64,000 nucleotides of DNA. Source: a virus. A program made the position numbers and the translations under genes. Positions 1,859 through 58,760 of this stretch are shown in pieces (within the stretch, counting starts at the first letter, position 1; every line of letters starts with the position of its first letter). Under the pieces are notes generated by a model. The model made no database searches. It had not been told where the DNA came from and was given only the letters and a program-made list of their open reading frames with translations. Location of the stretch: the IMG/VR virus record IMGVR_UViG_3300031521_000011, positions 32,001-96,000 of that record; one strand, given 5' to 3'.

Positions 1859-1873
1859 TTTTATTACTTATAC
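1859..1873 (-). promoter_or_regulatory. phage-specific (putative early) promoter GTATAAGTAATAAAA
   Basis: exact consensus copy between a terminator and an RBS; one of about 17 copies, all on the minus strand. Confidence 0.8.
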
Positions 1874-1876
1874 GGC

Positions 1877-1913
1877 AAAAAAAAGAAATAGGGAGTCGAT
1901 AATATCGACTCCC
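1877..1913 (-). terminator. intrinsic terminator
   Basis: GGGAGTCGAT/ATCGACTCCC stem plus T-tract. Confidence 0.75.
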
Positions 1914-1918
1914 TTCTG

Positions 1919-2428
1919 TCATAAATCGTCAGGGTGTTTGATGCCTAACATTTCACATGCTTTGCGCAGCGCCGGGCGGCCATACTGCGGATACAGTGAG
2001 TCGTCGTTGAGTACTTCCGCGACATCTGGCCTATCCAGGCATTTCATCCAAGCTGAGAGCTTGGAGATGCTTCTGCCGGCAGACAACCCTCGCTGGTCAA
2101 ATGCCTTCATCCAGGCAAATACCATATAATCCAAGAAATCTTGGACTGCCTCTTTGACATCTGTAACCTGTGTCCAGGTCTTCTTTCCAGCCAGAACTTC
2201 GGCAACGTAGTCGGCGTCAAGGTGTGGACTGGCGTCATCGAATGATACAAAATTAGCTGCGACCTCAAAACCAAACCCAAACACATCATGCGTGTCTTCC
2301 ATGCATGCCTTCGCGGCCTCAAGGTTGATTGAAAGTTTATTGTTGGCAATGAACTCATCATTTACCGGGATACGCGGCTCATCTCCGTCAGGGCACTTCC
2401 TCATGTATTCCACAGCATTATCCTCCAA
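1919..2428 (-). CDS. hypothetical protein
   Basis: 169-aa ORF in a minus-strand operon. Confidence 0.65.
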   Translation of the reverse strand: MEDNAVEYMRKCPDGDEPRIPVNDEFIANNKLSINLEAAKACMEDTHDVFGFGFEVAANFVSFDDASPHLDADYVAEVLAGKKTWTQVTDVKEAVQDFLDYMVFAWMKAFDQRGLSAGRSISKLSAWMKCLDRPDVAEVLNDDSLYPQYGRPALRKACEMLGIKHPDDL

Positions 2429-2436
2429 GATTTATT

Positions 2437-2622
2437 TTACCGAATTTCCTTCAGGAAGCCTTCCAGTTTATCCAGACTTTCTAGCACCTCTGGTAGCACC
2501 AGAAATATTCCGGCCGCCAGCATACCGATGCCCAGGCTACTGATTGCTAAAACCTCGCACCCCTTTCTGACAGGGGATACCCTCGTTATGGGTGCAATCT
2601 TCCGTTTGATCTTTAATGGCAT
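2437..2622 (-). CDS. small membrane protein
   Basis: 61 aa, GGAGGT RBS, one hydrophobic helix. Confidence 0.6.
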   Translation of the reverse strand: MPLKIKRKIAPITRVSPVRKGCEVLAISSLGIGMLAAGIFLVLPEVLESLDKLEGFLKEIR

Positions 2623-2638
2623 TTCGCTTACCTCCTGC

Positions 2639-2731
2639 TTATTTTCCCAACTTAATGGCGCCGGTTAATAATGACTGAGCCAGAACCAGAATGGCCACAA
2701 GGGCGATGTCCTTATTCTTACTATTGCTCAC
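2639..2731 (-). CDS. 30-aa hydrophobic peptide MSNSKNKDIALVAILVLAQSLLTGAIKLGK (not in the ORF track)
   Basis: GAGGAGGT RBS, GTG start, directly downstream of the promoter motif at 2755. Confidence 0.6.
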   Translation of the reverse strand: MSNSKNKDIALVAILVLAQSLLTGAIKLGK

Positions 2732-2754
2732 AGTTACTCACCTCCTCATTATTT

Positions 2755-2769
2755 TTTTATTGTTTATAC
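2755..2769 (-). promoter_or_regulatory. phage promoter motif variant GTATAAACAATAAAA
   Basis: near-consensus copy upstream of an RBS. Confidence 0.55.
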
Positions 2770-3060
2770 GGGCATATTGGCATTTTCCCACGATATAGAA
2801 AGTATCATCTTTCCTATATTGCCAAGAATTTTATTCTCAAGTGTATAACCCGCCTGTTCCAGGGTTCTTTGGACAGATTCCATAACCTCAGCAGGAGCAT
2901 CATTAAAGTCATGGCCCGTGGAAGTTTCACCATGCTCCGTTGCGTACCAAATCCTATTTCTGATTATCTCAAGATTTACTGAGATACTCTGCTCTTCTTT
3001 GGTGAGCGTGCGACCCTTATTTTTAAGGGATAACTCAAGTGCCGATTGCGCTGTTATCAT
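2764..3060 (-). CDS. hypothetical protein
   Basis: ORF 2764..3087; likely start MITAQ at 3060. Confidence 0.65.
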   Translation of the reverse strand: MITAQSALELSLKNKGRTLTKEEQSISVNLEIIRNRIWYATEHGETSTGHDFNDAPAEVMESVQRTLEQAGYTLENKILGNIGKMILSISWENANMPV

Positions 3061-3062
3061 GG

Positions 3063-3410
3063 CTATACCTGCGTGAGTGCGCGGCACCCGATGATATGCC
3101 CATCTGCATCCCGGACTACGTCATCCGGAACATACAAGTCTTCCGTGCGACCATTAAGCTTGGCGGCCTGGGCGCAGACGAGGCTCACAATGTAAGCTAC
3201 GCCCTCTTTGGGTTCGGGGAGGTCCTGCAATTCGCCGAAAACCGTGCTATTGACAGGCATTCCATTGACATACCCAACCAGTTCCCGGGTTACAGTAACC
3301 CGGGCCGTTGGAAGCACGGCCCGGATTGCGCAGATAAATTCGTTTCCGCGATCCAGGATATTGACCGGGTGAGGCGTGAGGTTGATAAGAGCGACGTCAC
3401 GATTGAACAT
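3063..3410 (-). CDS. conserved phage hypothetical protein (INLTPH...VRD..G.IIGC family)
   Basis: GGAGGAG RBS; motif pattern resembles a recurrent phage protein family of unknown function. Confidence 0.75.
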   Translation of the reverse strand: MFNRDVALINLTPHPVNILDRGNEFICAIRAVLPTARVTVTRELVGYVNGMPVNSTVFGELQDLPEPKEGVAYIVSLVCAQAAKLNGRTEDLYVPDDVVRDADGHIIGCRALTQV

Positions 3411-3430: not shown

Positions 3431-3445
3431 TTTTATTACTTATAC
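3431..3445 (-). promoter_or_regulatory. phage promoter GTATAAGTAATAAAA
   Basis: exact consensus, downstream of the terminator at 3459-3483. Confidence 0.8.
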
Positions 3446-3481: not shown

Positions 3482-3799
3482 CTAATAATCGTAGCGGGAT
3501 CTGCGAAGTGCCCGCGTAATCCCCATCAACTCAGAAACCGCCTCCGAGCCTTTGATGAGCTTCTTGATATCCTCATCACTCCGGCCGGATATCTTGAGCG
3601 TCTGCTCGTACTTTTCTTTCAGTACTTCCAGCTCTTGATTGAGCTTCACATTTTCCGCATTGGATACGGTAACTTCGCGTGACAATGCTTCAATGACATT
3701 CTGTTGAGACGCAGTCTTGTGATTGAACTCAGCGCGGAGCTTTTGCATGCGTTTTTCACATTCGGCGTTGATGTCTTTGTTCTTGATATCTTTTCCCAT
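3482..3799 (-). CDS. coiled-coil hypothetical protein
   Basis: start MGKDIK at 3799 after AAGGAGGG RBS and promoter motif; single-gene cassette. Confidence 0.75.
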   Translation of the reverse strand: MGKDIKNKDINAECEKRMQKLRAEFNHKTASQQNVIEALSREVTVSNAENVKLNQELEVLKEKYEQTLKISGRSDEDIKKLIKGSEAVSELMGITRALRRSRYDY

Positions 3800-3816: not shown

Positions 3817-3831
3817 TTTTATTACTTATAC
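3817..3831 (-). promoter_or_regulatory. phage promoter GTATAAGTAATAAAA
   Basis: exact consensus, downstream of the terminator at 3846-3870. Confidence 0.8.
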
Positions 3832-8032: not shown

Positions 8033-8508
8033 TTTGTTTCTCCTTCATACACCACTTCACCATTGTTGAATTTAACATCAAAGTCTGGCCAGAATTTATT
8101 GAGCGCTATGAGTGTAGGTGGAAAAATATTGCCATCGGTAGTTGTCATAATTTGTGTTGGCGTCATCCAGGTTAACCCACGCATTTCTTTGTCATGATCT
8201 GTGAGATATACCTTATCCGGGGATGCGCCGGCGTTATATTTAAAGATGACGGATCGAACTGGCTGCATTATGCCATGAATCCTAGCAATGCATAAAATTG
8301 CTCCACAGAGCTCCATATCTTTTTCATAGATAATGATTCCGAATTCCTCACGCGCCTCACGAACTGCTGTCTCAAGAAAGGTCTCACCCGGGTCAACCTT
8401 GCCTCCAGCAATAGCCCATCCCTGCCCATCGCTTCTTTCACCCATAAGAATTTTACCACCGGAATGAACAATGATACCGGTGCCGCCTGTGTAAATTTTC
8501 TGTCTCAC
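8014..8508 (-). CDS. Nudix hydrolase
   Basis: Nudix box GGKVDPGETFLETAVREAREEFG. Confidence 0.9.
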   Translation of the reverse strand: MRQKIYTGGTGIIVHSGGKILMGERSDGQGWAIAGGKVDPGETFLETAVREAREEFGIIIYEKDMELCGAILCIARIHGIMQPVRSVIFKYNAGASPDKVYLTDHDKEMRGLTWMTPTQIMTTTDGNIFPPTLIALNKFWPDFDVKFNNGEVVYEGETKWLKSQ

Positions 8509-8744
8509 TCTTCTGTCCCCTTCTTTAATATAGTTTTTTCGCGAAACCTGTTCACAGTAAGGTTTGCTGCCTGTGAGCTTCTATGATACTGAATCGTAGA
8601 TTTGCCGTTGGCTCTGTTGATAAGGGATACCCATGGTAGCACAGCTCCATTGTCCCTGAAGACAAACTTACCAGGTTCTTTGTTCTCAATAAGCTTTCTG
8701 CCAAGTTCAGTGGATATAATCTGAATCTTTTTCATATTGCTCAC
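8505..8744 (-). CDS. hypothetical protein
   Basis: first gene after the promoter motif at 8789. Confidence 0.6.
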   Translation of the reverse strand: MSNMKKIQIISTELGRKLIENKEPGKFVFRDNGAVLPWVSLINRANGKSTIQYHRSSQAANLTVNRFREKTILKKGTEE

Positions 8745-8788: not shown

Positions 8789-8803
8789 TTTTATATCTTA
8801 TAC
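8789..8803 (-). promoter_or_regulatory. phage promoter GTATAAGATATAAAA
   Basis: consensus match heading a long minus-strand operon. Confidence 0.75.
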
Positions 8804-8818: not shown

Positions 8819-8847
8819 TTGATATATTGGAAGATTTATCTTATAAT
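8819..8847 (+). promoter_or_regulatory. sigmaA/sigma70-type promoter
   Basis: TTGATA-17bp-TATAAT. Confidence 0.75.
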
Positions 8848-10380: not shown

Positions 10381-10409
10381 TTTACTTGCTCAGTAAGTAG
10401 TGGTATCAT
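10381..10409 (+). promoter_or_regulatory. sigmaA-type promoter with extended -10
   Basis: TTTACT-17bp-TATCAT with TG motif. Confidence 0.6.
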
Positions 10410-11175: not shown

Positions 11176-11216
11176 AAAAAAAAAGATAGAGCCCGGCCAT
11201 ATGGCCGGGCTGTTTT
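11176..11216. terminator. bidirectional intrinsic terminator
   Basis: AGCCCGGCCA/TGGCCGGGCT stem flanked by A- and T-runs between convergent genes. Confidence 0.8.
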
Positions 11217-11659: not shown

Positions 11660-11674
11660 TTTTATTGCTTATAC
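11660..11674 (-). promoter_or_regulatory. phage promoter GTATAAGCAATAAAA
   Basis: consensus match upstream of a GGAGGGG RBS; overlaps the -35 of the divergent promoter. Confidence 0.75.
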
Positions 11675-11693
11675 TCCGTTTTTACCTTATAAT
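11665..11693 (+). promoter_or_regulatory. sigmaA-type promoter
   Basis: TTGCTT-17bp-TATAAT. Confidence 0.75.
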
Positions 11694-15409: not shown

Positions 15410-15424
15410 TTTTATGTCTTATAC
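15410..15424 (-). promoter_or_regulatory. phage promoter GTATAAGACATAAAA
   Basis: consensus match following the terminator at 15440-15463. Confidence 0.75.
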
Positions 15425-16120: not shown

Positions 16121-16135
16121 TTTTATTACTTATAC
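16121..16135 (-). promoter_or_regulatory. phage promoter GTATAAGTAATAAAA
   Basis: exact consensus after the terminator at 16149-16172. Confidence 0.8.
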
Positions 16136-21499: not shown

Positions 21500-21514
21500 T
21501 TTTATCTCTTATAC
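21500..21514 (-). promoter_or_regulatory. phage promoter GTATAAGAGATAAAA
   Basis: consensus match directly abutting the RBS. Confidence 0.75.
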
Positions 21515-24104: not shown

Positions 24105-24134
24105 TACTCCTTTCATGTCAAAAAATAACAATAA

Positions 24135-24161: not shown

Positions 24162-24168
24162 TACATAC

Positions 24169-24183
24169 TTTTATTACTTATAC
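24169..24183 (-). promoter_or_regulatory. phage promoter GTATAAGTAATAAAA
   Basis: exact consensus. Confidence 0.75.
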
Positions 24184-27662: not shown

Positions 27663-27677
27663 TTTTATTACTTATAC
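27663..27677 (-). promoter_or_regulatory. phage promoter GTATAAGTAATAAAA
   Basis: exact consensus. Confidence 0.8.
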
Positions 27678-31616: not shown

Positions 31617-31658
31617 GCTTTCCCCTCCATAAAATTTAAGAGGAGCAATTTGCTCCTC

Positions 31659-31673
31659 TTTTATTCCTTATAC
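31659..31673 (-). promoter_or_regulatory. phage promoter variant GTATAAGGAATAAAA overlapping a gene end
   Basis: consensus match encoded in the last codons (RYKE-stop) of 31661..31993. Confidence 0.55.
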
Positions 31674-33331: not shown

Positions 33332-33346
33332 TTTTCTTACTTATAC
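33332..33346 (-). promoter_or_regulatory. phage promoter variant GTATAAGTAAGAAAA
   Basis: near-consensus, abuts an AAGGAGGT RBS. Confidence 0.7.
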
Positions 33347-39367: not shown

Positions 39368-39395
39368 TTGCAGTATACAATACTTATGTTATAAT
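39368..39395 (+). promoter_or_regulatory. sigmaA-type promoter with extended -10
   Basis: TTGCAG-16bp-TATAAT with TG. Confidence 0.7.
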
Positions 39396-41507: not shown

Positions 41508-43829
41508 ATGGATGTTAAGGAACCAACATTTAGAGCAATGAGCATGAGGGAATTCTCAGCAATCGATCCTCAAGCAAAATCGATTGTGGATTCTTATGGT
41601 GTGGCTGTACCTAAGTCTGCCGCCAGAGAAGAAGAAGGCATGAGCAAGTTTGCCTCATTCCGTCAGAACCTGGTACAGGACCCATACCCATCGCCATTCC
41701 TAAATCTTTCCGATACTAAAATTCCGAACAAGATGTCAGAGTTGTTTGAGCTCTGCCGTTATTTCTATATGTTCGACCCACTCATCGCCGGCGCCATCAA
41801 TTCTTTGGCGACGTTCCCGGTGACAAACCTATATCTCGATGAGAGCAAGATGGCCGACAAGGCCAAGGTGGGCGCTGATGGAAAGAAGACTGGCGTTAAG
41901 GACGATAGTCCGCAGCTTAAAACATATAAAAAGACGCTGTTTGAAAACATCAACCTCAACAAGTTGCTGATTGAGATCGGCATAGATTATTGGTTGTATG
42001 GCAACTGCTTCATTTTCGGCGAGTTCTGGACCAACCCAGATACCAAACAGAAGGAATGGCGGCATGTCGTGAGACTCGATCCGAGTCGCATGATTATCGA
42101 CCATAACGAAGCCACCCGTGAAATCAAGTATAAATGGATGATCCCTGAGAAAATCAGGCGCATCGTTACAATGAAGAAACCCATGAGCGAGTATGAAAAG
42201 ATACCCGATCTGGTAAAGCGTGCTGTCACAAAGAACGAAGCGCTGGTTATCAACCCAAACAATATTTTCCATTTTAGCCGTCCGACGGACAGTATGGGAG
42301 ATACGGTTTGGGGTACGCCGGTAATTGCTAATGTCATGAAACTTCTGATGTACAGAAACGTCATGAGGCAGGCCCAAGAGGCTATCGCTCGGGAGCATAT
42401 CGTTCCTTTCCGCATATATTACTTCGAGAGAAACGCTCAATCCGATCCGATGGTCAACTGGGGCGGCGTCACAGCTGATTTTGCAGCCGAGTTGAACAAA
42501 TCCTCAAAAGACCCAAATTACAAGGTCATCTCCCCTCTGCCGGTTAATGTATTGAACTTGGGCGGCAATGGCCGGGCGCTGATGCTTACACCGGAAATCG
42601 AGCAGGTCCAGGGTGAGATTCTGGCCGGCATGAACGTACCTAGAGAATTTATCTTTGGTGGAGTTACATGGTCGGGCAGCAGCATCTCCCTGAAGATTCT
42701 CGAAAATCAATTTATAACCTATAGGTTATTAATACAGGGATTCTTGAATTTCCTTGTCAAGAATATGGCCAAGGTACGGAATGAATGGCATTCAGAGGAA
42801 GACAACGATGCAATTCCGTCTATCCATATGCAAGATTTGAAAATGCAGGATGACGTTCAGCAGAAGCAGCTCATCGTTCAGATGAACCAAGCTAACAAAC
42901 TTCCTGATGAGCAGCTCTATAAGGCTATGGACATGGATCCTGAAAAAATTGTCGCAGGTCTTGAGGCTGAGGCAATAAAGAGGATAGAGACAGATAAGAA
43001 AATGCAGATCCTCAGGATTGATGCAAATGAGGAAGTGCAGGAAGCAGATATTACCGCGCAAGTAAAACTAGCTCTCTTCAAGGAGAGATTGAGAATTAAG
43101 ATGTCTCAATCTACAGATGAGGTGGAGCGAAACGTTGCAATGCAGATGTTCGGTATGGGGGCAACTCCACAGCCACAAGTTGACGCAATGGGCAATCCGA
43201 TACCCGGACCGGTAGGGCCCGGGGGAGCGCCGGGAGCGCCGCCGGCAGGCCCGGGTGGAGCTCCGGGTACAGACCCAACAGCGCCGCCCGCCGGCCCTGG
43301 ACAACCAATGGCTCCTACGGTAGCAATGGCAGACGCCGGTGATGTTCAAGACCCTGCCGCTGGAAAAGATAAGGCAAATGTGCCGGACCAAATAGATTCT
43401 GTGAATGTCGGCGACACCAAAGATATTGATGCTGAGATTCAAAGAATCTCAGCCATGCCAGATAAGCAAAGAGCTGCAGCTTTAACTCAACTTCCAGCCG
43501 CGCAACAAAAGGCAATTGCAATGAGGATGGAAGCCATGAAAAGCCGCGAGAATTATGGCAAGGGATATGCAGATGCCCAAGCCCTCGCAGAGCGCATCGT
43601 AGCAATGCCTGAGCGTCAACAGGAGGCTGCGCTGAACACTATCCCTGTACAGATGAGGGATCGTGTCATGGTCTTTGTAGAGCAGCTACAGATGCAACAG
43701 CAGGATGACCAAAAGGCACAGCAAGTACAGCAAGGCCAGGCACAGCAAGGCCAGGGCCCGGCGACAGTTGATATGCGTCCAATGCCTGAACAAAAACCAC
43801 CTCGAAGGAAGAGTTTGAACGGAGGTTGA
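41508..43829 (+). CDS. portal protein with Pro/Gln-rich C-terminal extension
   Basis: FDPLIAGAIN, DYWLYGNCFIF, RLDPSRM, IFHF...VWGTP and EILAGMNVP.EFI.G portal-like motifs. Confidence 0.8.
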   Translation: MDVKEPTFRAMSMREFSAIDPQAKSIVDSYGVAVPKSAAREEEGMSKFASFRQNLVQDPYPSPFLNLSDTKIPNKMSELFELCRYFYMFDPLIAGAINSLATFPVTNLYLDESKMADKAKVGADGKKTGVKDDSPQLKTYKKTLFENINLNKLLIEIGIDYWLYGNCFIFGEFWTNPDTKQKEWRHVVRLDPSRMIIDHNEATREIKYKWMIPEKIRRIVTMKKPMSEYEKIPDLVKRAVTKNEALVINPNNIFHFSRPTDSMGDTVWGTPVIANVMKLLMYRNVMRQAQEAIAREHIVPFRIYYFERNAQSDPMVNWGGVTADFAAELNKSSKDPNYKVISPLPVNVLNLGGNGRALMLTPEIEQVQGEILAGMNVPREFIFGGVTWSGSSISLKILENQFITYRLLIQGFLNFLVKNMAKVRNEWHSEEDNDAIPSIHMQDLKMQDDVQQKQLIVQMNQANKLPDEQLYKAMDMDPEKIVAGLEAEAIKRIETDKKMQILRIDANEEVQEADITAQVKLALFKERLRIKMSQSTDEVERNVAMQMFGMGATPQPQVDAMGNPIPGPVGPGGAPGAPPAGPGGAPGTDPTAPPAGPGQPMAPTVAMADAGDVQDPAAGKDKANVPDQIDSVNVGDTKDIDAEIQRISAMPDKQRAAALTQLPAAQQKAIAMRMEAMKSRENYGKGYADAQALAERIVAMPERQQEAALNTIPVQMRDRVMVFVEQLQMQQQDDQKAQQVQQGQAQQGQGPATVDMRPMPEQKPPRRKSLNGG

Positions 43830-44253: not shown

Positions 44254-47200
44254 ATGAATGAACAAGACAGAATAAGGCTGGACCGCGAAGCTTCTGAGAT
44301 GGAGTCCAAGGTCTTGGCGCTCGTCAAATCGAAGTTTCCAATGAAGCTTCAGGGCGGAATTCTGAATGTATCCGACCTGAAGATTGAGCGCCCGGCTGGT
44401 CTGTTTAATCTCACAGCTCAACATAATCTCAAGATGGACGACGGAAGCCTATACGGTGCTCTCCGTGGTCGCTTCAACTTGAGCAATGACAAGGGAAAAG
44501 TGATAAAGCAGACAAATGTGCAAGATATCATCAGCACAATTCCATACAAAACAGTCCGTGGCAGTTACATTGCCGGTGGAAATGAGCGCACAATCTCAGC
44601 TCAGATGCGCCAGGCACCCGGTATTTACACAGAGCGCAATGGAACTGAGGTCATAACCAAGATACGGTTTAATGCAACGAGTGAGTTATGGACCTCACCG
44701 ATCATGATGCATTATGATCAGTCGAAGTCCAAGTTCTTTCTGCGCTTTAAAATCGGAAATAAAACGCTCGATCTGAGCGGCATAACTTTCCTTACTGACA
44801 TCGCTGGCGCATCTATCGGTGAGGTCAAGAAAGCGCTTGGCTCCGAGGCGGTCTATATCGATGTTATGCAGAAGCATCCAACATTCAACGCTACGCTGGC
44901 TGATGTTTATGCCTTATATTTCAAGGATGAGAAGTATGACGGAACAGCCGAGCAGGTTGTGAAACTGCGCGACAGGATCATGGAGCAACCCAACTTTGGC
45001 AACTCTGGCGAAAAAAGAGTCGGAGCTACAGTCGGTGTTGCCTCCAATAAACTTGATAAAAATGTTGTATTGGCTTCAATCACTAAGCTATTTGCCGTAG
45101 CAAGAAATGATGCAGAAGAAGATTCTATCGACGATCTTCGCTTCAAGATCGTACTCAATGACCAGGACTTCATCCTGGGAGAACTGAGCGAAGGCATCGA
45201 CGAGTTTAAGAACAAGGTAAACTTCAGGAGCGGCGCAGACAACGAATTGAAGTTCATCGTTGCTTCTCCGCTTGATAATCTGGACAAGAAGATTGACAGG
45301 TTCATCAAAGCCGATACTAGAAATGCCCCTCAGTCCACCGGTATCGTGGAGGCCCCGGAGACAACAAACCCATTGAATCTGATTTCCTCCACGAAAAAGA
45401 TCACACAAAAGGGCGAGGGTGGCATCTCTGACGAGGCAGCCCGGAACGCTGACAGCGCCAGAAACCTTCAGCCCACTGCCATTACCCGCATCGACCCAGT
45501 TGAATCTCCTGAATCTCAGAAGATTGGATTGGTCCGCCAGCTCGCGCGAAACGCACGGGCTACGAATGGCACAATCGTATCGAAATTCTTTCCAGTAAAA
45601 AAGGGAACTGCCAACATTGATGAAGAGAATATTGTAGAGCTTGATCCGTTTGAGGAATATGACCATCATGTGGCTTTCTATACGCCATCTGAGATCACCA
45701 AGATCAATAACATGATTGCGTTTAAGAAGCCTCTGGTGACAGGCCGATTCAATGGAAAAGTTATGCAAATTCCGAGGGAAGAGATTGAGTATATCGATAC
45801 TTCCCCGAGTGACATCTTTGGCATCTCTGCTGCCCTGGTTCCGTTCGGTGACCACAACGACGGTAACCGTATGTTGATGGCCACAAATCAGCAAAAGCAA
45901 TCTCTGCTGCTGAAGAGCTCAGTGCGCCAGGCTCCCTATGTCCAGGTAGCCATAGATCAAGACAAGAAACAAACATTTGAAGGCCAAATTGGCGAAAACT
46001 CAAACGTTGTGCGTTCTCCTGAGAACGGCGTCGTTGAGTCAGTCGATGGCGGCCATATTGTAATTAAGGGCGAAAGCGGCAAAAGACATTCGCTTGATTA
46101 CTATGACCACTTTCCGATGAACCAGGATAATTTCGCTCATAACGAAGTTCTAGTGAAGCGCGGGGACGAGGTAAAGGCCGGCCAAATGGTGGCTGAAGGA
46201 TGGCACACTAAGGATGGCAAGCTTGCCCTTGGTCTCAATGCCCGTATCGCATATCTACCATATAAGGGTTGGAACTATGAAGACGGCGTGGTTATAAGCC
46301 GCGAATTCGCCGACAGGGTTCAGACTGATGAAATGGAATCCCGCGACATCATAGTATACAAGGATTTCATTGGCGGCCCAGGGAGCGGAGTCAGGGATAA
46401 ATTCATAGAAACTACAGCACAAAGCGCCGGCATGCAGAAGTTGGATAAGGATGGAATCATTATGCCTGGGCAAGAAGTTGGCCCCGGAGACATCCTTGTT
46501 GCCATGCTGAAGCCTAAGGCTCCGGACTATGACGCAATGCGTTCATTCTCCAAGATGATCATGAAGGGCGACGAAACCGAGTTTGAGGATGCCGCACAAA
46601 AAATCGGTGATGGCGAGTACATGCAGGGTAAAGTACTCGATGTACATGTGCTGCCCGGCGGCGGAGATCCCGATGTAAGAAATATAATCCGCATCCGTGT
46701 GAAAATGTCAAAGACACTCAAAATCGGAGATAAAATTTCTGGCCGTCACGGAAACAAAGGAACTATTACCAAAATACTTGGAACGAAGGAAATGCCTCAC
46801 ACTGAAGACGGGCGCTCAATTGACGTCCTGTTTTCTCCGCTGGTTGTTCCTTCTCGTAAAAATGTTGGCCAGCTTCTGGAAGTCAATGCTGGCTTAATTG
46901 CTGAGAAGACAGGTAAGCCATACACTGTTTACAATTTCGATCCAAAAGAAGTGGACAATGTCAAAAACGGGCTTATCAAAATCGGAGTACCAGACGGCAA
47001 AATGGCAGTAATCGATCCTAAAACTGGCAAGGCCTACGAGAACAAAGTCACTGTCGGAAATATGTATATACTGAAACTAAAGCACAAGGTTGATGAAAAA
47101 TTACAATCTCGCTCTTTTGAAGAAGGCGGATTCAACCAGAAATACCTGTCTCCAGAGAAATCCACCGGAGAGGCTGCAGGTGAAAAGGCCAACCCACAGC

Positions 47201-50200
47201 GCCTTGGTGAGATGGAGATGAGGGTGCTGCAGGCCAATCAGGTACCATTCAATATCCTTGAAACCACCACCCTTAAAGGTGATGGCGCTGGCTTTGCAAA
47301 GGATCGCCTTGATATCTTCAGGGCTATGATCAACGGCAGTCCAGAGCATCTCAATAAACTGCGGGACAAGTCCGGCGTACCGGAGTCCTTACGCATCCTG
47401 AAGGACAAGATGTTCGTTATGGGTATGGACGTTAAACCTCTCAATAGGGGCAAAACGGTTCATTCATTGAACGATACATTTAGTGAGCTGATGGTCCTTC
47501 CAACAAGGGATGAAGACATCCTGCGTACAATCGGAAAGAGCAAACGCGTTTATAGTTCAGAGACCTTCCAGTCCACAGACAGGCGGCACGAGAAGTCTGA
47601 TAAGGCTGTACCTGGCGGACTGTATGATCCGGACATCTTCGGAAAAGATGAAGACACGAAGAATGGCCAGGTTGCACGTGAAGCCAGGAGTAAATGGGGC
47701 TACATCGAGCTGGCTACCTATATGCCAAATCCTGTATTGATAGAACAGGCTCAGTATAATCCATATGCATCACTTCTCGGGATGGGTAAGGATAAACTCT
47801 TAAGCCTGATGTCAAAAGACTATGTACTCATCACAAACCCCGGCGATAGCGGTCTTGGTGCAAACACAATCGTTTCTTCAAAGTTAGCTACAGACCTTAT
47901 GATGAATGAGGACAAGCACTTTGAATACAAGGCTGGCGGAGAAGCCTTGATGTATCTTCTGTCAAAGATCAATGTGAACAAGGAACTTGTGGCTACCGAG
48001 GCTGCATTGAAAGCCGCGAAGCTCGACAAAAAAGATGCACTCTTTAAGAAATATTCAGTGCTCAAGATGCTGCAAAAGAACAACATGCAGCCCGGCGACC
48101 TGATGACAAAGATTGTTCCTGTCACACCAAAATACCTGCGCCCGCGCAATGCTCAGGGGCAACAGGTTATAGAGAATGGTCTGACTAAGGTCTACAGTAA
48201 CCTGGTTGATGTAAATGAAAACTCGCGCCTAGCCTTTGAGTCTGGTACGCCAGATATCAAGGCAGAACAAAGCAATGGCCTCTATCGTTCCATGAAATAT
48301 CTCTATGGCGGATTTAAAAATGATCGCTATGTTGATAAAAAGAAAAAGGAAGAATTGGGCGGCATCCTTGATCTCATCGGAAACAAAGAGGGCTTGGTTC
48401 GCGATAAGATGCTGGGCAAGCGCGTTGACTACTCTGGCCGCGCCGTAATCGGTGTCGATCCCACATTGAAGATCGATGAGATTGGTATCCCGGCTGACAT
48501 CGCAAAGACCACTTACAAGCCATTTATCATTAAAGAACTAATCCATCGCGGATATGTTCCAATGGGCGCTGATGGAGAGCGTATGGCGAGGGAAAAGATT
48601 CTTCGATTTGATGACGATGTCAAAAAAGTTCTCGATGACATTGTCAAAGATCGCCCAATCCTCGTAAACCGTGCGCCATCACTTCATAAGTTCGGCATAC
48701 AGGCTATGCGTCCGGTCATTCGCACGACGCAGGATGGACAAGTCGTCAGGAATATCCAACTTAACCCCATGGTCGTAACCGGCTTTGGCGCTGACTTTGA
48801 TGGAGACCAGATGGGTGTGCACGTTCCGCTGAGCGACAAGGCCGTCGAAGAAGCCAGAAACATGATGATGCCCAGCGATAATCTTATTAATCCAACCAAC
48901 GGCAAGATGATCCTTGAAATCCGTCATGAGATGACATTGGGTATATACTACCTGACAATGAATCCAGAACAGACAACTGGAAAGAACATCACCTACTCTA
49001 CATATAAACAGCTTCGCGCAGACTACGAATCCGGCAAGATCAAAACCCGTCAGGCTGTTACCCTTAATGGCAAAATGACCACGGCCGGTCAATGGCTGTT
49101 CTTTGGAATACCAGGGCTCCAGGCAAAGTATCGTAACAAGTATTTCGGACAGACAATGAGCGACAAGTCCCTGAAGGACATGCTACGCGAGATCTATGAC
49201 GACATTACATTTGGCCGCAATGAGACGATGGGCACAATTGATCTATCAAATCTGATGGATAACATCAAGGACCTTGGATTCATGGCATCTACTCGCTCCG
49301 GTCTTAGCATCGGAATCAAAGATCTGGAGTTCCCAGAGAAGTATCAGGATGATATTTTTGAAAGGGCTAGAAAGATCGATGAGCGCCTGAAGGGCGATGA
49401 GGCGGGACTCATTGGCGCATACCAAACACTGGAAGGTGAAGTTGAGAGCGAGCTCAAGGCTGGTGCCATGGGTAAGGATAATCCCGTTACTGCCATGCTG
49501 CAGTCTGGTGCCAGGGGCGACGCCGGCCAGATTCGCCGTATGGGTGGCCTTGTTGGTGTTGGCCGTGATATTGAAAATCATGCAGTCACACCAATTAGAT
49601 CTTCGCATATGACCGGCCTCTCTCCGGGTGAGTACTGGTTGCACAGCTACGACTCCCTGAAGGGCATGGCTGACCGCGCACTGAATACAGAAGCACCAGG
49701 CACGCTTACCAGGGAGCTCTGGTCCGCATATCAAGACAAGGTTATCTCAGAACCGGACTGTCATACAACAAAAGGAATCCTCATCAACAAGGAAGGCAAA
49801 ATTGTCGGACGCTATGCATCAAAAGACATTACAAGCGCCGATGGATCCATAACATACGTGAAGGCTGGACAACCAATCACACAGATAACGCAAACCGCTA
49901 TCGGCAGAGACAAGACCATCAAGTTTATCCAGATCCGCTCACCAGCCACCTGCGCAACCGTCAATGGTCTGTGCCAGAAGTGCTATGGCTGGGAGACCGG
50001 AAGGCCACAACCCCCGAAGCTTGGATACCCAGCCGGCGTTATTGCATCTCAGGCCATCGGCGAGCCGGTGACGCAGATGACGATGAAGACATTCCATGGC
50101 GGCGGCACGTCGTCCAACGTTACGCTTGGCCTGCCCAGAATCCTTGAGATGCTGCACCCTGAGTCATCCAACCTCAACAATATAGCGGTTCTGTCAAAGA

Positions 50201-51144
50201 ATACCGGCAGAGTTGAAGAGATTAAGGATACCGTCAGCGGCACTGATGTTGTTATTGGCAAAAAGAAATACCATATTCCGTTCGATGAGAACGGCAACCG
50301 TAAGCCATTAAGGGTAGTGGTTGGAGATAGTGTTGTTCAGGGTCAGTTCCTTACTGTAGGAAATCTTGATGACCTTGACGCTGCTCGTAAGGACAAGACA
50401 ATGACATCCATTACCAGCGCCCGCCCGGTAGAGATTATGAACTTCGCACCTGATAAGGAAGAAGGACTCAATCAGGCGCAGAATTACATGATTGGCGGCA
50501 TGCAGTACGCAATCGATACCTCCCTGAATAAACAGGACGCTGTTGACCGCCGCCACATCGAGCTGACAGTCGGAAAGCTCACAGAGAATGTCAAAATTAG
50601 CGACTCTGGCGACTCTCCATACATGGATGGCCAAGAAGTCAAACGCAACGTAGCTGACCGTTGGAATGCTGATAATGTGACAATGTCCATCGCCAAACTC
50701 ACGCCAACAGCCAGCATGGATAAGCTTCTTGGAGCTATTGCAGGTGAAACCGTCAAAGATAGAAGCGGACAGATACTTGTAAAGCAAGGTCAGAAGATTA
50801 CCAGAGATATGCTCGGCCCAATCATGCTGGCGACCAGAAACATCAAAGTTACGCCGAGGCCGATCATTTATGTGGCCGAGATGGATTCTCCACAGACGGC
50901 AGCCGATAAGGGCCATGATAACTGGTTCAGCAACCTTGGCCACCAAAACATCGGTAAGCAGCTCTCCAGGGGCGTATCATTCGGTCAAGTGGATAAGCTC
51001 GAAGACCCGCGTGCCCGCATGATGGCCGGCAAGCTCAGTAATATTGGTCAAGAGGGCCATAACTGGTGGGAGAAGTTCAAGAACGGCACAAGCGATTTCG
51101 CAAACACAATCAGTAACAGTCTTCTGGGAATGTTTCAGAAGTAG
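44254..51144 (+). CDS. rpoBC: single-chain DNA-directed RNA polymerase, beta + beta' fusion
   Basis: beta motifs: DGNRMLMATNQQKQ, GWNYEDG, GDKISGRHGNKG, MYILKLKH, QRLGEME; beta' motifs: LGKRVDYSGRAVI, NRAPSLH, GADFDGD, SGARG, CQKCYG, QAIGEPVTQMTMKTFH; one uninterrupted 2296-aa ORF. Confidence 0.96.
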   Translation: MNEQDRIRLDREASEMESKVLALVKSKFPMKLQGGILNVSDLKIERPAGLFNLTAQHNLKMDDGSLYGALRGRFNLSNDKGKVIKQTNVQDIISTIPYKTVRGSYIAGGNERTISAQMRQAPGIYTERNGTEVITKIRFNATSELWTSPIMMHYDQSKSKFFLRFKIGNKTLDLSGITFLTDIAGASIGEVKKALGSEAVYIDVMQKHPTFNATLADVYALYFKDEKYDGTAEQVVKLRDRIMEQPNFGNSGEKRVGATVGVASNKLDKNVVLASITKLFAVARNDAEEDSIDDLRFKIVLNDQDFILGELSEGIDEFKNKVNFRSGADNELKFIVASPLDNLDKKIDRFIKADTRNAPQSTGIVEAPETTNPLNLISSTKKITQKGEGGISDEAARNADSARNLQPTAITRIDPVESPESQKIGLVRQLARNARATNGTIVSKFFPVKKGTANIDEENIVELDPFEEYDHHVAFYTPSEITKINNMIAFKKPLVTGRFNGKVMQIPREEIEYIDTSPSDIFGISAALVPFGDHNDGNRMLMATNQQKQSLLLKSSVRQAPYVQVAIDQDKKQTFEGQIGENSNVVRSPENGVVESVDGGHIVIKGESGKRHSLDYYDHFPMNQDNFAHNEVLVKRGDEVKAGQMVAEGWHTKDGKLALGLNARIAYLPYKGWNYEDGVVISREFADRVQTDEMESRDIIVYKDFIGGPGSGVRDKFIETTAQSAGMQKLDKDGIIMPGQEVGPGDILVAMLKPKAPDYDAMRSFSKMIMKGDETEFEDAAQKIGDGEYMQGKVLDVHVLPGGGDPDVRNIIRIRVKMSKTLKIGDKISGRHGNKGTITKILGTKEMPHTEDGRSIDVLFSPLVVPSRKNVGQLLEVNAGLIAEKTGKPYTVYNFDPKEVDNVKNGLIKIGVPDGKMAVIDPKTGKAYENKVTVGNMYILKLKHKVDEKLQSRSFEEGGFNQKYLSPEKSTGEAAGEKANPQRLGEMEMRVLQANQVPFNILETTTLKGDGAGFAKDRLDIFRAMINGSPEHLNKLRDKSGVPESLRILKDKMFVMGMDVKPLNRGKTVHSLNDTFSELMVLPTRDEDILRTIGKSKRVYSSETFQSTDRRHEKSDKAVPGGLYDPDIFGKDEDTKNGQVAREARSKWGYIELATYMPNPVLIEQAQYNPYASLLGMGKDKLLSLMSKDYVLITNPGDSGLGANTIVSSKLATDLMMNEDKHFEYKAGGEALMYLLSKINVNKELVATEAALKAAKLDKKDALFKKYSVLKMLQKNNMQPGDLMTKIVPVTPKYLRPRNAQGQQVIENGLTKVYSNLVDVNENSRLAFESGTPDIKAEQSNGLYRSMKYLYGGFKNDRYVDKKKKEELGGILDLIGNKEGLVRDKMLGKRVDYSGRAVIGVDPTLKIDEIGIPADIAKTTYKPFIIKELIHRGYVPMGADGERMAREKILRFDDDVKKVLDDIVKDRPILVNRAPSLHKFGIQAMRPVIRTTQDGQVVRNIQLNPMVVTGFGADFDGDQMGVHVPLSDKAVEEARNMMMPSDNLINPTNGKMILEIRHEMTLGIYYLTMNPEQTTGKNITYSTYKQLRADYESGKIKTRQAVTLNGKMTTAGQWLFFGIPGLQAKYRNKYFGQTMSDKSLKDMLREIYDDITFGRNETMGTIDLSNLMDNIKDLGFMASTRSGLSIGIKDLEFPEKYQDDIFERARKIDERLKGDEAGLIGAYQTLEGEVESELKAGAMGKDNPVTAMLQSGARGDAGQIRRMGGLVGVGRDIENHAVTPIRSSHMTGLSPGEYWLHSYDSLKGMADRALNTEAPGTLTRELWSAYQDKVISEPDCHTTKGILINKEGKIVGRYASKDITSADGSITYVKAGQPITQITQTAIGRDKTIKFIQIRSPATCATVNGLCQKCYGWETGRPQPPKLGYPAGVIASQAIGEPVTQMTMKTFHGGGTSSNVTLGLPRILEMLHPESSNLNNIAVLSKNTGRVEEIKDTVSGTDVVIGKKKYHIPFDENGNRKPLRVVVGDSVVQGQFLTVGNLDDLDAARKDKTMTSITSARPVEIMNFAPDKEEGLNQAQNYMIGGMQYAIDTSLNKQDAVDRRHIELTVGKLTENVKISDSGDSPYMDGQEVKRNVADRWNADNVTMSIAKLTPTASMDKLLGAIAGETVKDRSGQILVKQGQKITRDMLGPIMLATRNIKVTPRPIIYVAEMDSPQTAADKGHDNWFSNLGHQNIGKQLSRGVSFGQVDKLEDPRARMMAGKLSNIGQEGHNWWEKFKNGTSDFANTISNSLLGMFQK

Positions 51145-51374: not shown

Positions 51375-51671
51375 ATGGACAAGGTGGTAAACAATAAGAA
51401 CGATCTTATCCGAGAGGTGGCCGCCTCTACAGGGATCTCCATCCGCCAGGCGGAAGAGATCATCAATACGTTTCTTGGTATGATGCAACAGAAGGTCTTA
51501 GCTGGACAGGCGATTTCAATCAAAGGTTTCTTTGGCATGAGGTATCTCCGGGCAAGATCCAAAGCTGTTCGTGACTTCGAGAATGGAATTCAGAAGCAAT
51601 CAGGAGATCATCTCCGCCCAAAATGTAAATTCAGTGAAAGTTTTGTGCAAAAAATAAAGGAAAAAGGGTGA
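51375..51671 (+). CDS. HU/IHF-family DNA-binding protein
   Basis: NKNDLIREVA, ISIKGF and RPKCKFS motifs. Confidence 0.85.
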   Translation: MDKVVNNKNDLIREVAASTGISIRQAEEIINTFLGMMQQKVLAGQAISIKGFFGMRYLRARSKAVRDFENGIQKQSGDHLRPKCKFSESFVQKIKEKG

Positions 51672-54797: not shown

Positions 54798-54833
54798 AAG
54801 AATCCCCCGTCATGTAGTAAAATAAAAAATGGA

Positions 54834-54862
54834 ATGAGGATGGACATAATGTCCATCCTCAT
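54834..54862. terminator. stem-loop terminator
   Basis: ATGAGGATGGACA/TGTCCATCCTCAT. Confidence 0.65.
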
Positions 54863-54879
54863 AAAACAAATGATTCGGT

Positions 54880-55842: not shown

Positions 55843-56124
55843 TTATTTCAGCAAATCTTTAAAAGGTTTGCTGGGTTTGAATGCCGGCGATTGATGAGCG
55901 GGGACGTTGATTTTTTCTCCAGTATGAGGGTTCCGGCTGTCACGCGCTTTTCTTTCGGCGCCTCTGAATGTGCCCAACCCGGCCAAGGTTACAATGTCGC
56001 CTGACTTAACATGACTCTGTATTGCATCATCGGTTGCCTTGAATACATCTTTGACACAAGCTTGAGAAAATCCTGTCTTGTCAGCAACCTCCTTCGCAAG
56101 GTCTGCGCTGCTGATCTTTTCCAT
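55843..56124 (-). CDS. hup: HU-family DNA-binding protein
   Basis: VTLAGLGTF, ERKAR.SRNPHTGEKI.VPA and PAFKPSK motifs. Confidence 0.9.
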   Translation of the reverse strand: MEKISSADLAKEVADKTGFSQACVKDVFKATDDAIQSHVKSGDIVTLAGLGTFRGAERKARDSRNPHTGEKINVPAHQSPAFKPSKPFKDLLK

Positions 56125-56165
56125 ATACTCACCTCCTTTACTAAATATAAATGCTTCCGGAAGCA

Positions 56166-56180
56166 TTTTATTTCTTATAC
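56166..56180 (-). promoter_or_regulatory. phage promoter GTATAAGAAATAAAA
   Basis: consensus match upstream of HU. Confidence 0.75.
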
Positions 56181-56232: not shown

Positions 56233-56652
56233 TCAAAAATTTTCTTTGATGTGGTCGATACAGTTTTCACACACCTTGTTGTTTTGGACAGGATGGAGTT
56301 CTGTATCATTTCGACCACATAGGCAGCACTTGAGCTGGAGTACACGAAGCCCTATTGCAATCTCACCATTAAAGATGAGAATGTCCATTTGGCTACCCTC
56401 TCTGATGTTCATACGGGTTCGTATTGCTGAAGGTAGAACAAAACGATTTAAAGAATCAACTTTGTGAATGTACTGAATTTCCTGCATGAACTTTTGCAGT
56501 GATGTATTTACAACCTTGAGTTTGACAATTTCCTCATCTTCATAGAAGGTGATACTGACTTCTTCGCGACGAAAATCTCGCACACCCAGAGGAATAGCAA
56601 TCCGTCCAAGATTATCAATTCCCTTGGAAACCCCTATTGATCTATAATCCAT
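56233..56652 (-). CDS. tandem AbrB/SpoVT-type regulator with C-terminal Zn ribbon
   Basis: IDNLGRIAIP and VDSLNRFVLP repeats; CCLCG...VCENC. Confidence 0.8.
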   Translation of the reverse strand: MDYRSIGVSKGIDNLGRIAIPLGVRDFRREEVSITFYEDEEIVKLKVVNTSLQKFMQEIQYIHKVDSLNRFVLPSAIRTRMNIREGSQMDILIFNGEIAIGLRVLQLKCCLCGRNDTELHPVQNNKVCENCIDHIKENF

Positions 56653-56667
56653 ACTCCACCCCCGTAA

Positions 56668-56682
56668 TTTTATTACTTATAC
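56668..56682 (-). promoter_or_regulatory. phage promoter GTATAAGTAATAAAA
   Basis: exact consensus after the terminator at 56690-56718. Confidence 0.8.
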
Positions 56683-56724
56683 GAAGTGCAAAAAAAGAGG
56701 GGGATCCCCCTCTTTTTTAAAATT

Positions 56725-57342
56725 CTATTCCCCAACGTGCTTCATCTTTGACGTAGCACACTTTGGACAATACATGTCGTTATTCTCATTATAATACATA
56801 TCCGGTATGTCATTTTTGGCAATCTCGGAATGCTTACAGTTGACGCACGTATAGCGTATATTTGTATTTAATGGTCCTTTTGTTAAGAGATTTGATGGAG
56901 ACTCAGCGAATACAGCCAAAAGATTCTCATTTGTATAATACCAAATGAAGCATGCTTCATTGATAAGTTTCTTGAATCCATTTGTGTATTCCACTGCCAG
57001 CTTATCCATCTCTGATTCTTGGCCAGATATCAGAGACTCGAAATAATCCTTTTTTTCATGTGACAATATAGGATTCTGAAGCATAGATTCATATGTAATC
57101 CTAAGAGTTATTTGCTCTACTACCTCACATGGAACTGCAATCAAAGTGAAATCAAACGGTAAATTAATATAATTGTGATTACTGATAAATGTCCATTTAA
57201 GTGCGTCTGGTATTCTCGGAAGAATACTTGATTCTTTTTCTTTCTTCTCAAGATCGATAGACGCTTCTGTCCAGAACATACTTTGAAGTATATCCATCTT
57301 GTCATAGTATAGCATCCCTTGTTGTATTATCATATTCCTCAC
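56725..57342 (-). CDS. hypothetical protein with C-terminal Zn ribbon
   Basis: CVNC...CPKC. Confidence 0.7.
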   Translation of the reverse strand: MRNMIIQQGMLYYDKMDILQSMFWTEASIDLEKKEKESSILPRIPDALKWTFISNHNYINLPFDFTLIAVPCEVVEQITLRITYESMLQNPILSHEKKDYFESLISGQESEMDKLAVEYTNGFKKLINEACFIWYYTNENLLAVFAESPSNLLTKGPLNTNIRYTCVNCKHSEIAKNDIPDMYYNENNDMYCPKCATSKMKHVGE

Positions 57343-57348
57343 TTCCTC

Positions 57349-57374
57349 AAAAAAGAGGAGTCTTGCGACTCCTC
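57349..57374 (-). terminator. intrinsic terminator immediately downstream of a phage promoter
   Basis: GAGGAGTC-GCAA-GACTCCTC followed by TTTTTT. Confidence 0.7.
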
Positions 57375-57379
57375 CATTA

Positions 57380-57394
57380 TTTTATCACTTATAC
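57380..57394 (-). promoter_or_regulatory. phage promoter GTATAAGTGATAAAA
   Basis: consensus match. Confidence 0.75.
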
Positions 57395-57398
57395 CATC

Positions 57399-58163
57399 CT
57401 AGGCCATTGGCGGCATTTTTGGAACGGGTTTGAGATACAGATCCCTGTCCTCCTTCAGCATTAAGAATGTCCAAACCATTTTCATAGCCTCTGGGCGATT
57501 CTCTTCCATGACGGCGGCATACTGCGACCAGAACTTATCCATATCATACTTTGGAAGGCAATCCTTGCAGAGAGCAACGTTAGATTCGTACACTCCGAAT
57601 TCGTTGTTGCATGACGGGCAGCGCAGGATGTGCATCCTATCTGTCAAGAATGAGCGGACCTGCTTTGTGGACCACCAGTCCATTGCATCAATAAATTTAT
57701 TTATTCCGATGCGCTCGATTTCGTCCTGACCAAATCCGCTCATCTTCTCAAACTTGATAAGGCCCCGGCGAAGGAAAGCCTTCCATATGACGTCATATTG
57801 CTGACTTGATCGATGATGGAGCTTTACGACATCGGACTTTATGAGTCCGTCGAGCGGACCACCCTCAAGCCCTGTTGGCTCCTTTGGCGACTCTGGCAGC
57901 GTGCTGATATTGGCCATCTTTTTATTGGCTTCAGCCAGATCAGATCTTTTGATATTATACCTGGGTATATGATCCTCAGGCCGCTTGATCCTATGGACAT
58001 TCTTGGCATCAATTTCAGATATGCCTTCTACGAGGTCTGCAGCTTCAGTGCCAATAAATGAAAGATCATCTTCCACTATAACCTTACTGTCACTAGGAGC
58101 GCTATATGCTTGAACATCAGGAGATTCTTCACCGGCGTCCTTCATAAGTTCATCTGTTTCCAT
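57399..58163 (-). CDS. hypothetical protein with Zn finger
   Basis: CPSC...CKDC; GAGGAGG RBS. Confidence 0.7.
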   Translation of the reverse strand: METDELMKDAGEESPDVQAYSAPSDSKVIVEDDLSFIGTEAADLVEGISEIDAKNVHRIKRPEDHIPRYNIKRSDLAEANKKMANISTLPESPKEPTGLEGGPLDGLIKSDVVKLHHRSSQQYDVIWKAFLRRGLIKFEKMSGFGQDEIERIGINKFIDAMDWWSTKQVRSFLTDRMHILRCPSCNNEFGVYESNVALCKDCLPKYDMDKFWSQYAAVMEENRPEAMKMVWTFLMLKEDRDLYLKPVPKMPPMA

Positions 58164-58247
58164 TCTCAAACCCTCCTCATTACGTGGTGTTTACAGTTTA
58201 CCATAATTCAAAAAAAAGACAAGGGGCGCTTTCGCGCCCCAGTTGTT

Positions 58248-58721
58248 TTATTTGTCCGCCGGCACATTCCCGAGGTTCTGATCAATCTCATTCAATGCAG
58301 CTTCAGTTTCAGCTGCGATTGCCTTGTCTTCCTCGAGGACAGATACCTGGGCGGGTTTACGACGACCACCCTTGGGAGCGGCGGGAGCGGCGGGAGCTAC
58401 CGGAACTTCAACCACAGGAACTGTGGCGGGAGCAGCGGCTGGAGCTTCAACAACTGTAGCTGTAACAGGAACCGCAGCGGGAGCTACAGGGGTAGCGGGA
58501 GCTGCTACCGGAGCGGGAGCTGCTTTAGCAGCGACCTTTGCAGCATCCGCTGCCTTCTTGGCTTTGTATGCGTCGAGTCTGCTCTGGAGACCCTTGGAGA
58601 TTCCGCCATTCCGGACAATCTTGCCTTCAGCATAGGCATTCCCTGAAACACAACCGAGACCGAAACCGACCAGAGCGGATCCACCAGCAATGAGACCGAC
58701 AACCAACTTAGGATTCAACAT
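58248..58721 (-). CDS. membrane-anchored Ala/Pro-rich protein
   Basis: N-terminal Gly-rich TM helix; AP-rich linker; AAGGAGG RBS. Confidence 0.75.
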   Translation of the reverse strand: MLNPKLVVGLIAGGSALVGFGLGCVSGNAYAEGKIVRNGGISKGLQSRLDAYKAKKAADAAKVAAKAAPAPVAAPATPVAPAAVPVTATVVEAPAAAPATVPVVEVPVAPAAPAAPKGGRRKPAQVSVLEEDKAIAAETEAALNEIDQNLGNVPADK

Positions 58722-58745
58722 GACAAAGACCCTCCTTAGATAATT

Positions 58746-58760
58746 TTTTATATCTTATAC
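58746..58760 (-). promoter_or_regulatory. phage promoter GTATAAGATATAAAA
   Basis: consensus match next to the origin-like locus. Confidence 0.75.

Follow-up and report, generated by a model that had tools for sequence, protein, structure and literature searches.

A GTATAAG promoter motif on one strand of an uncultured phage genome and the phage-encoded polymerase and sigma factor that probably read it

Which RNA polymerase reads a 15-base motif, GTATAAG-NN-ATAAAA, that recurs immediately ahead of genes on one strand of an uncultured phage is the question raised by a 64,000-nucleotide (nt) stretch of viral DNA, referred to here as the window; it covers bases 32001-96000 of the 168,244-bp record IMGVR_UViG_3300031521_000011, which is rated complete, and the phage is labelled G000. 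Judged by its sequence and setting the motif is almost certainly a promoter. It is probably the promoter of a phage holoenzyme, formed by a fused beta-beta' polymerase and a phage sigma factor, which would be packaged, delivered with the DNA and used to transcribe the non-structural genes. A preliminary description of the window had proposed a -10-only promoter read by the fused polymerase; a phage-specific promoter that travels with the fused polymerase is supported, but the polymerase probably does not act alone, as the phage also encodes a sigma70-family factor and about half of the motif copies carry the TG of an extended -10 element.

Distribution and surroundings of the motif

The motif was searched as the pattern GTATAAGNNATAAAA, with the chance level taken from dinucleotide-preserving shuffles, and was placed on a gene map built with a model of codon usage and ribosome-binding sites (206 genes, 91% coding). 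The window contains 15 exact matches, all on the minus strand, against 0.00 in shuffles; with up to two mismatches allowed there are 20 matches, against 1.74 in shuffles. Across the whole genome there are 26 exact copies, without exception on the minus strand, and the motif read backwards, used as a control, is found on neither strand. Each copy precedes a minus-strand gene of the whole-genome map. The 17 copies listed in the preliminary description are all present, comprising the 15 exact matches and one-mismatch copies at 2755 (GTATAAACAATAAAA) and 33332 (GTATAAGTAAGAAAA); the distance from each to the minus-strand start codon that follows is 11-67 nt, in most cases 13-27 nt, and almost all of them lie wholly between genes. 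The strand bias that had been described for these copies is thereby borne out.

The order of elements at the motif-bearing units is terminator, motif, ribosome-binding site and gene. The last base of the hexamer TATAAG is G in each of the 26 exact copies and in those of relatives, at the position where a sigmaA promoter has T (T-7); there is also no TTGACA about 17 nt upstream, as the columns at -35 are uninformative and every column further upstream than -8 from the motif stays below 0.4 bit. The earlier statements that the copies share no -35 element and are not sigmaA promoters agree with this. Upstream of the motif there is a weak T/AT-rich patch, with T-G at -15/-14 in about half of the copies. 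A conserved AT-rich motif near -10 ahead of operons is also what characterizes early promoters of the phiKZ/AR9 type. A dispersed repeat or mobile element was considered and ruled out because the flanks of the copies are unrelated and hold no information.

Six window copies lie directly 3' of a G+C-rich terminator-like hairpin with a T-run: 1859..1873, 18 nt before the start codon of gene 1394-1840; 3431..3445, 20 nt before gene 3063-3410; 3817..3831, 17 nt before gene 3482-3799; 15410..15424, 27 nt before gene 15125-15382; 16121..16135, 23 nt before gene 15822-16097; and 56668..56682, 15 nt before gene 56233-56652. At two sites the motif abuts the ribosome-binding site, as had been noticed previously, with GGAGG beginning one base past the A-run: the exact copy at 21500..21514, 11 nt before gene 21099-21488 in the unit that includes an NAD-dependent DNA ligase (19090-21102), and the one-mismatch copy at 33332..33346, 13 nt before a gene for a 71-amino-acid (aa) protein resembling sigma region 4 (33103-33318). 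The other one-mismatch copy, 2755..2769, is 23 nt before a short open reading frame (2639-2731). Further exact copies are found at 8789..8803, 53 nt before gene 8505-8735 and divergent from a plus-strand TATAAT box (8842-8847); at 11660..11674, 18 nt before gene 11216-11641; at 27663..27677, 18 nt before gene 27393-27644; and at 58746..58760, 24 nt before gene 58248-58721.

At the four remaining copies, all exact, a strong hairpin, in some cases followed by a U-run, stands 0-8 nt after the A-run, between the promoter and the ribosome-binding site. These are 24169..24183, 67 nt before gene 23733-24101 (hairpin 24120-24168); 31659..31673, 42 nt before gene 30786-31616 (hairpin 31620-31658, beginning at the end of the A-run); 56166..56180, 41 nt before gene 55843-56124 of the helicase unit (hairpin 56125-56165, beginning at the A-run); and 57380..57394, 46 nt before gene 56725-57333 (hairpin and U-run, 57335-57379). 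Hairpins that start within 8 nt of the A-run accompany 21 of 100 copies from four genomes, against 4.35 in shuffles (maximum 8); this excess fits 5'-terminal stem-loops and a transcription start within the A-run. The copies at 56166, 56668 and 57380 are kept in the orthologous spacers of the closest relative (L127, 70% polymerase identity) while the flanks differ, and at orthologous sites the hairpins past the A-run are likewise kept with different sequences; these hairpins may be 5' stabilisers or attenuators. Placing TATAAG at -12 to -7 would put the start on the second-last A of the run, and this placement fits the geometry at 21500 and 33332, where GGAGG directly follows the A-run.

The fused polymerase and the phage sigma factor

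The polymerase proposed to read the motif is a 2296-aa single chain (44254..51144, plus strand) that contains domains of both beta and beta'; it is close to a full-length bacterial beta plus beta' and is the sole beta/beta' homologue in the genome. Its gene is the last large gene of the portal operon, with the portal protein gene (41508..43829, plus strand) directly upstream in one plus-strand unit, a synteny kept in relatives and in the cultured phage Arash. An alpha subunit was looked for in the G000 genome and none was found. A DNA search with the polymerase gene against GenBank phages gave no match; a single-protein locus search for the polymerase in viral contigs also returned nothing, and an alignment query was used instead. 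The polymerase family is a large group of fused proteins of 2,200-2,340 aa on contigs of 130-200 kb; about 160 contigs in IMG/VR encode it.

The sigma factor is a divergent 280-aa protein of the sigma70 family, encoded outside the window on the plus strand at genome positions 114137-114979 (L125:841-1683; the window coordinate would be 82137-82979), 12 nt past a gene of the baseplate block and inside the baseplate/tail block. A Pfam search of the G000 genome for sigma region 2 gave no match, and this blank alone would have wrongly suggested the absence of any sigma; the protein was traced through a weak region-4 match, a PHROG match (E=5e-4) and synteny. Proteins at the syntenic place in three relatives align with it, and a profile of the syntenic proteins matches solved SigA chains over regions 2.3-4.2 (E=1e-9); searched across the whole library, the sigma profile finds about 75 clusters of 264-305 aa. 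The AlphaFold2 model of the protein (P0121) has a predicted local distance difference test score (pLDDT) of 89, and sigma factors account for each of the 50 top fold matches in the PDB, so that a promoter of broadly sigma70 type would have a factor with regions 2, 3 and 4 on hand. The residues aligned with the STYATWWIRQAI segment of primary sigmas are quite different, which fits a changed -10 specificity. A second sigma is present in the relatives G001 and G002 and in Arash; that of G001 and G002, detectable by Pfam, was ruled out as the reader of the motif because G000, G003 and G005 carry the motif or a variant without a homologue of it.

The pair was also modelled as a complex, using a mark that is reached by 58 of 80 solved complexes and by 2 of 110 mismatched pairs. 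The model of sigma bound to polymerase residues 1105-1545 scores 0.78, and the highest-scoring of three controls reaches 0.10; at least 30% of contacts recur between runs, and the partner pLDDT is 66 or higher. The predicted interface joins polymerase residues 1316-1346 to sigma residues 36-44 and 61-77, seating sigma2 on the clamp helices; the phage core is the only core that was modelled.

It is proposed, with the motif, its placement and conservation, the sigma fold and the co-occurrence of sigma and polymerase as the observed basis from which start site, reading enzyme, packaging and timing are inferred, that TATAAG acts as the -10 hexamer, with the preceding G and often a TG two bases further upstream serving as an extended -10 element. 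Transcription would start at a purine in the A-run about 7 nt past the hexamer, which would give very short leaders. The reader would be a holoenzyme of the beta-beta' polymerase and the 280-aa sigma, whose region for reading the -10 element is unlike that of primary sigmas and would tolerate G at -7; because T-7 is among the two bases that sigma2 flips out, the same G would keep host sigmaA off. The possession of a sigma70-family factor and the extended -10 TG in about half of the copies make a sigma-dependent promoter more likely than a polymerase-only one. As polymerase and sigma are both encoded in virion-gene operons opposite the promoters, they are probably late products that enter the particle and reach the cell together with the DNA; the delivered enzyme would then transcribe the non-structural genes, namely small early-type genes and the ligase and helicase units, while the structural genes would be served by TATAAT-type boxes. 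The designation of these units as an early regulon, made in the preliminary description, is uncertain because the motif would also drive the ligase and helicase units.

A candidate packaging signal may be present in the proteins themselves. N-terminal (E/D)K(I/L/V)(A/S) motifs occur in 13 of 69 plus-strand proteins and 3 of 137 minus-strand proteins (Fisher p=6e-5, with the pattern chosen post hoc), examples being the plus-strand genes at 8871, 9208, 9724, 11716, 13599, 14069, 36414 and 37303; the sigma carries one as IEKLA at residues 8-12. The motif may be a capsid-targeting leader, which, if so, would support packaging of the sigma.

Relatives and known phages

All nine related genomes examined combine a fused polymerase, the sigma and a GTATAAG-type -10 box, over polymerase identities of 28-70% and G+C contents of 31-56%. 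The sigma gene is opposite the promoters in all eight genomes in which the strand was checked, and it is on the polymerase strand in all of these but G003, which has an inverted portal-polymerase operon. In G001-G004 (36-42% polymerase identity, 31-38% G+C) there are 19-28 intergenic copies on one strand, or, in G004, eight exact copies; one relative in this identity group has ATTAAA in place of ATAAAA. A relative at 33% polymerase identity has the box AAACTTGT-TATAAG-TAAAGTGA, and variants that keep TATAAG are found in G005, G007 and G008, at identities as low as 28% and G+C contents as high as 56%; in the relatives at 28-29% identity (49% and 56% G+C), GGTATAAG is the top-enriched upstream word. 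G008, at 56% G+C, has a -35-like box resembling tGaAAa upstream of TATAAG, at the spacing of exactly 17 nt typical of sigma70 promoters. The motif thus tracks the lineage of the polymerase and not host composition.

Outside G003, the orthologues of the G000 plus-strand genes in the relatives are always on the strand opposite to the promoters. In G003 the inverted portal-polymerase operon is on the promoter strand and is still without the motif; the signal therefore follows gene class rather than strand, and the motif as a mere marker of DNA strand is ruled out. A 180-kb contig of a Priestia megaterium assembly (L126; GCA_002576235.1, NUKD01000006.1) holds terminase, portal, fused polymerase and opposite-strand helicase in the same order and thereby ties one branch of the family to a named Bacillaceae host; its flank holds one candidate box only, too few for use.

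Among cultured phages the closest comparison is with Salmonella phage Arash, whose polymerase matches that of G000 at 27.5% identity (E=2e-108) and is also encoded next to the portal gene. The two phages share the order of portal, small gene and polymerase, a sigma gene (gp10 in Arash) among structural genes, non-structural genes on the opposite strand, and GGTATAAG boxes ahead of the latter. In the 85 kb of Arash that was read, 14 GGTATAAG boxes precede minus-strand non-structural genes; the plus strand has only two copies, one within the portal gene and one just upstream of gp9 and the sigma gene gp10. The Arash polymerase is in two pieces, Gp206 and Gp216, whereas that of G000 is one 2296-aa chain; its genes (OQ632216.1, 130093-134670 and 139441-141261) are split by inserted opposite-strand genes that carry GGTATAAG boxes, and the first spans beta and the first part of beta' (matching fused-protein residues 24-1617). 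Downstream of TATAAG the sequence is ATAAAA in G000 but GTGTAAAC-like in Arash. Arash and YerA41 have Gram-negative hosts, whereas the G000 clade has Firmicutes-type ribosome-binding sites and the member in the Priestia megaterium assembly.

Purified Arash virions are reported to contain polymerase beta, the most abundant protein by spectra, together with beta' and the sigma Gp10 (PMC10585845), and YerA41 virions contain polymerase subunits and a sigma whose gene is late (PMC7354516). The presence of polymerase and sigma in particles is thus known by mass spectrometry for these two phages; G000 itself is uncultured. Neither the Arash (PMC10585845) nor the YerA41 (PMC7354516) paper mentions promoters, and the mReC paper (PMC7481178) mentions neither promoters nor sigma; nothing relevant on the motif or on fused virion polymerases turned up in the literature searched.

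Early promoters of the phiKZ/AR9 type are conserved AT-rich motifs of at least 10 nt near -10 that were found by sequence, and they are read by a virion polymerase that is made late and packaged (PMC7598289). G000 resembles these phages in having a highly conserved AT-rich motif centred near -10 and a phage-encoded polymerase of multisubunit type; the motif sequences are unrelated, however, and the polymerases of phiKZ and AR9 are very divergent, come in four or five pieces and work without a sigma70-family factor (PMC7824862), whereas G000 has one bacterial-like chain and a genuine sigma. The bacterial extended -10 promoter (TGnTATAAT) shares with the motif the position of the hexamer relative to the likely start, a TG at -15/-14 (in half of the copies), a purine start and a factor built of sigma2-sigma3-sigma4, but it has T where the motif has an invariant G at -7 and no counterpart of the ATAAAA block over the start region, and the G000 clade has no -35 element. 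The division of labour proposed for G000 is also that of coliphage N4, in which a virion-delivered polymerase reads the early genes and the virion polymerase and structural genes have host-type promoters; the virion polymerase of N4, a single-subunit enzyme of the T7 type, recognizes hairpin promoters, and the polymerases of the two phages are without homology.

The second promoter class, competing explanations and significance

The plus-strand units are headed by TATAAT-type boxes, which are located 14-55 nt ahead of the start codon, often have G or TG in front and mostly lack a -35 element. These boxes constitute a second promoter class, whose chief difference from the motif is T in place of G as the final base of the hexamer. 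Such boxes stand 18-54 nt ahead of the first genes of virion-gene units at 8842-8847, 10404-10409, 11688-11693, 26498-26503, 27726-27731, 33370-33375, 35254-35259, 39390-39395 and 59258-59263 (all plus strand), and may be read by the host holoenzyme or by the phage core with another factor. The plus-strand genes include the large terminase (33398-35224), a protein containing a prohead protease (59291-61939) and further tail and baseplate genes, while those of the minus strand encode small open reading frames without known function, the NAD-dependent ligase, a helicase, a PARP-like protein and similar products. The 71-aa protein encoded at 33103-33318 (minus strand), which follows the motif at 33332 and diverges from the terminase promoter, consists only of a helix-turn-helix like that of sigma region 4.2 (Pfam Sigma70_r4, E=0.006; profile A2, E=7e-4) and has no homologue in the relatives examined; it could be a switch factor for the TATAAT-type promoters.

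Several further features surround these units. An HU-type DNA-binding protein is encoded directly 3' of the polymerase gene (51375-51671, plus strand; Pfam Bac_DNA_binding, E=6e-11). Phage HU-like proteins such as TF1 of SPO1 affect transcription. The minus-strand gene 55843-56124 may be a second HU-type gene, the Bac_DNA_binding match being found only in its orthologue in the closest relative. Pfam and PHROG searches assigned no function to the polymerase's neighbours of 131, 346, 597 and 615 aa. The minus-strand blocks include the ligase, which has a BRCT domain, and the PARP-like protein (24188-25555; WGR, regulatory and catalytic domains); of the two, only the ligase unit is headed by a motif copy (21500). 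A tRNA-Met gene (27285-27362, minus strand) lies between a plus-strand and a minus-strand unit, and several further tRNA-like sequences are seen in the right arm of the genome.

Other assignments of the reading enzyme have to be weighed against the phage holoenzyme. The phage sigma might instead redirect the host core polymerase to the GTATAAG promoters, as SPO1 gp28 or T4 gp55 do, leaving the fused polymerase to read something else or to have another role. Its complete sigma2-sigma3-sigma4 fold is like that of factors bound to bacterial cores, phage sigmas habitually recruit the host core (PMC7824862), and the lack of a detectable alpha subunit in the phage genome points the same way; this arrangement is nevertheless unlikely, as sigma and fused polymerase occur together in nine of nine genomes, both in virion-gene operons opposite the promoters, and the two are co-detected in Arash (PMC10585845) and YerA41 (PMC7354516) particles. 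The modelled contact with the phage clamp helices, although a textbook one, passes its controls, and a late-made sigma could not turn on early-looking genes unless it were delivered with the DNA. That the fused polymerase reads the motif alone and sigma-free, as the preliminary description had it and as single-chain phage polymerases or, maybe, the phiKZ virion polymerase do, is more doubtful again: motif and polymerase co-occur throughout the lineage, and the conserved block from about -13 to +2 is like that of promoters of phage-specific polymerases (PMC7598289), but an enzyme approaching a full-length bacterial beta plus beta' belongs to a class dependent on an initiation factor, a matching sigma gene is present throughout, and the -12 to -7 hexamer, the TG in half of the copies and the -35-like box spaced by 17 nt in G008 are sigma70-type features.

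Use of the motif by the host sigmaA holoenzyme, as a weak or activator-dependent extended -10 promoter, is still less probable; although TATAAG is separated from TATAAT by one base, about half of the copies have the TG and TATAAT-type boxes elsewhere in the genome show sigmaA-like signals in use, G replaces T-7 in every copy of about ten genomes whose hosts range from 31 to 56% G+C. Sigma2 takes up T-7 as one of two flipped-out bases (PMC7598289), the invariant ATAAAA is without a sigmaA counterpart, no -35 element is seen, and the phage separates the T and G versions by gene class. Hardly to be expected is a motif that is not a promoter, acting as an operator for a phage regulator or as a leader element in RNA (a processing site or translation signal): the fixed short distance to the ribosome-binding site and the position of some copies within inverted repeats would suit such a role, but the shape and position are those of a -10 region, relatives have a -35-like partner at 17 nt, and the motif-bearing units are without any other promoter-like signal; many copies lie directly past terminator-like hairpins and would thus often escape transcription from upstream.

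Several observations also count against the phage holoenzyme as the reader. The co-occurrence of motif, polymerase and sigma is compatible with either protein as the reader and with either the phage or the host core as the partner of sigma. The passing score of the modelled complex may reflect likeness to solved holoenzymes, since sigma2 on the clamp helices is the textbook contact; it would be expected for any sigma with any bacterial-type beta' and shows no preference for the phage over the host core. As no alpha subunit was found, an alpha-less assembly of the enzyme has to be assumed. The list of Arash virion proteins holds many enzymes, and its authors caution that carry-over is possible (PMC10585845); the polymerase genes of YerA41 are classed as early (PMC7354516). 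A few minus-strand units have TATAAT-type boxes, two of these being full promoters of the TTGACA-17-TATAAT type; TGGTATAAT and TGGTAAACT boxes at 54798-54879 and 58164-58247 (minus strand) belong to a Pam3-gp34-like/helicase unit and a 254-aa gene, and both are kept in the closest relative. With TGGTATAAT-type boxes on minus-strand units, the link between strand and gene class is imperfect and the early character of the motif-bearing units is uncertain.

The phage holoenzyme of fused polymerase and sigma is considered the probable reader with these points taken into account. To our knowledge, the phages described so far bring in one of the two components only: phiKZ, AR9, N4 and T7 have a polymerase but no sigma, T4 and SPO1 a sigma but no polymerase. 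This division has been stated for jumbo phages (PMC7824862). The G000 lineage has both, together with a defined promoter consensus in which G replaces T at the last base of the -10 hexamer. A broader and tentative extension, possible though somewhat short of probable, is that this lineage carries a complete, portable and alpha-less holoenzyme of bacterial type in its virion, that the -7 pocket of its sigma has shifted from T to G, that TATAAG and TATAAT sort the genes between the phage and the host enzyme, and that the same code extends from phages of Firmicutes to Arash. The G/T rule would be a direct test of how sigma reads position -7, and the cultured phage Arash offers a test bed. As a sequence signature the motif would annotate non-structural transcription units in many uncultured phages of 150-200 kb; one polymerase gene, one sigma gene and a 15-bp promoter may also make up a compact orthogonal expression system.

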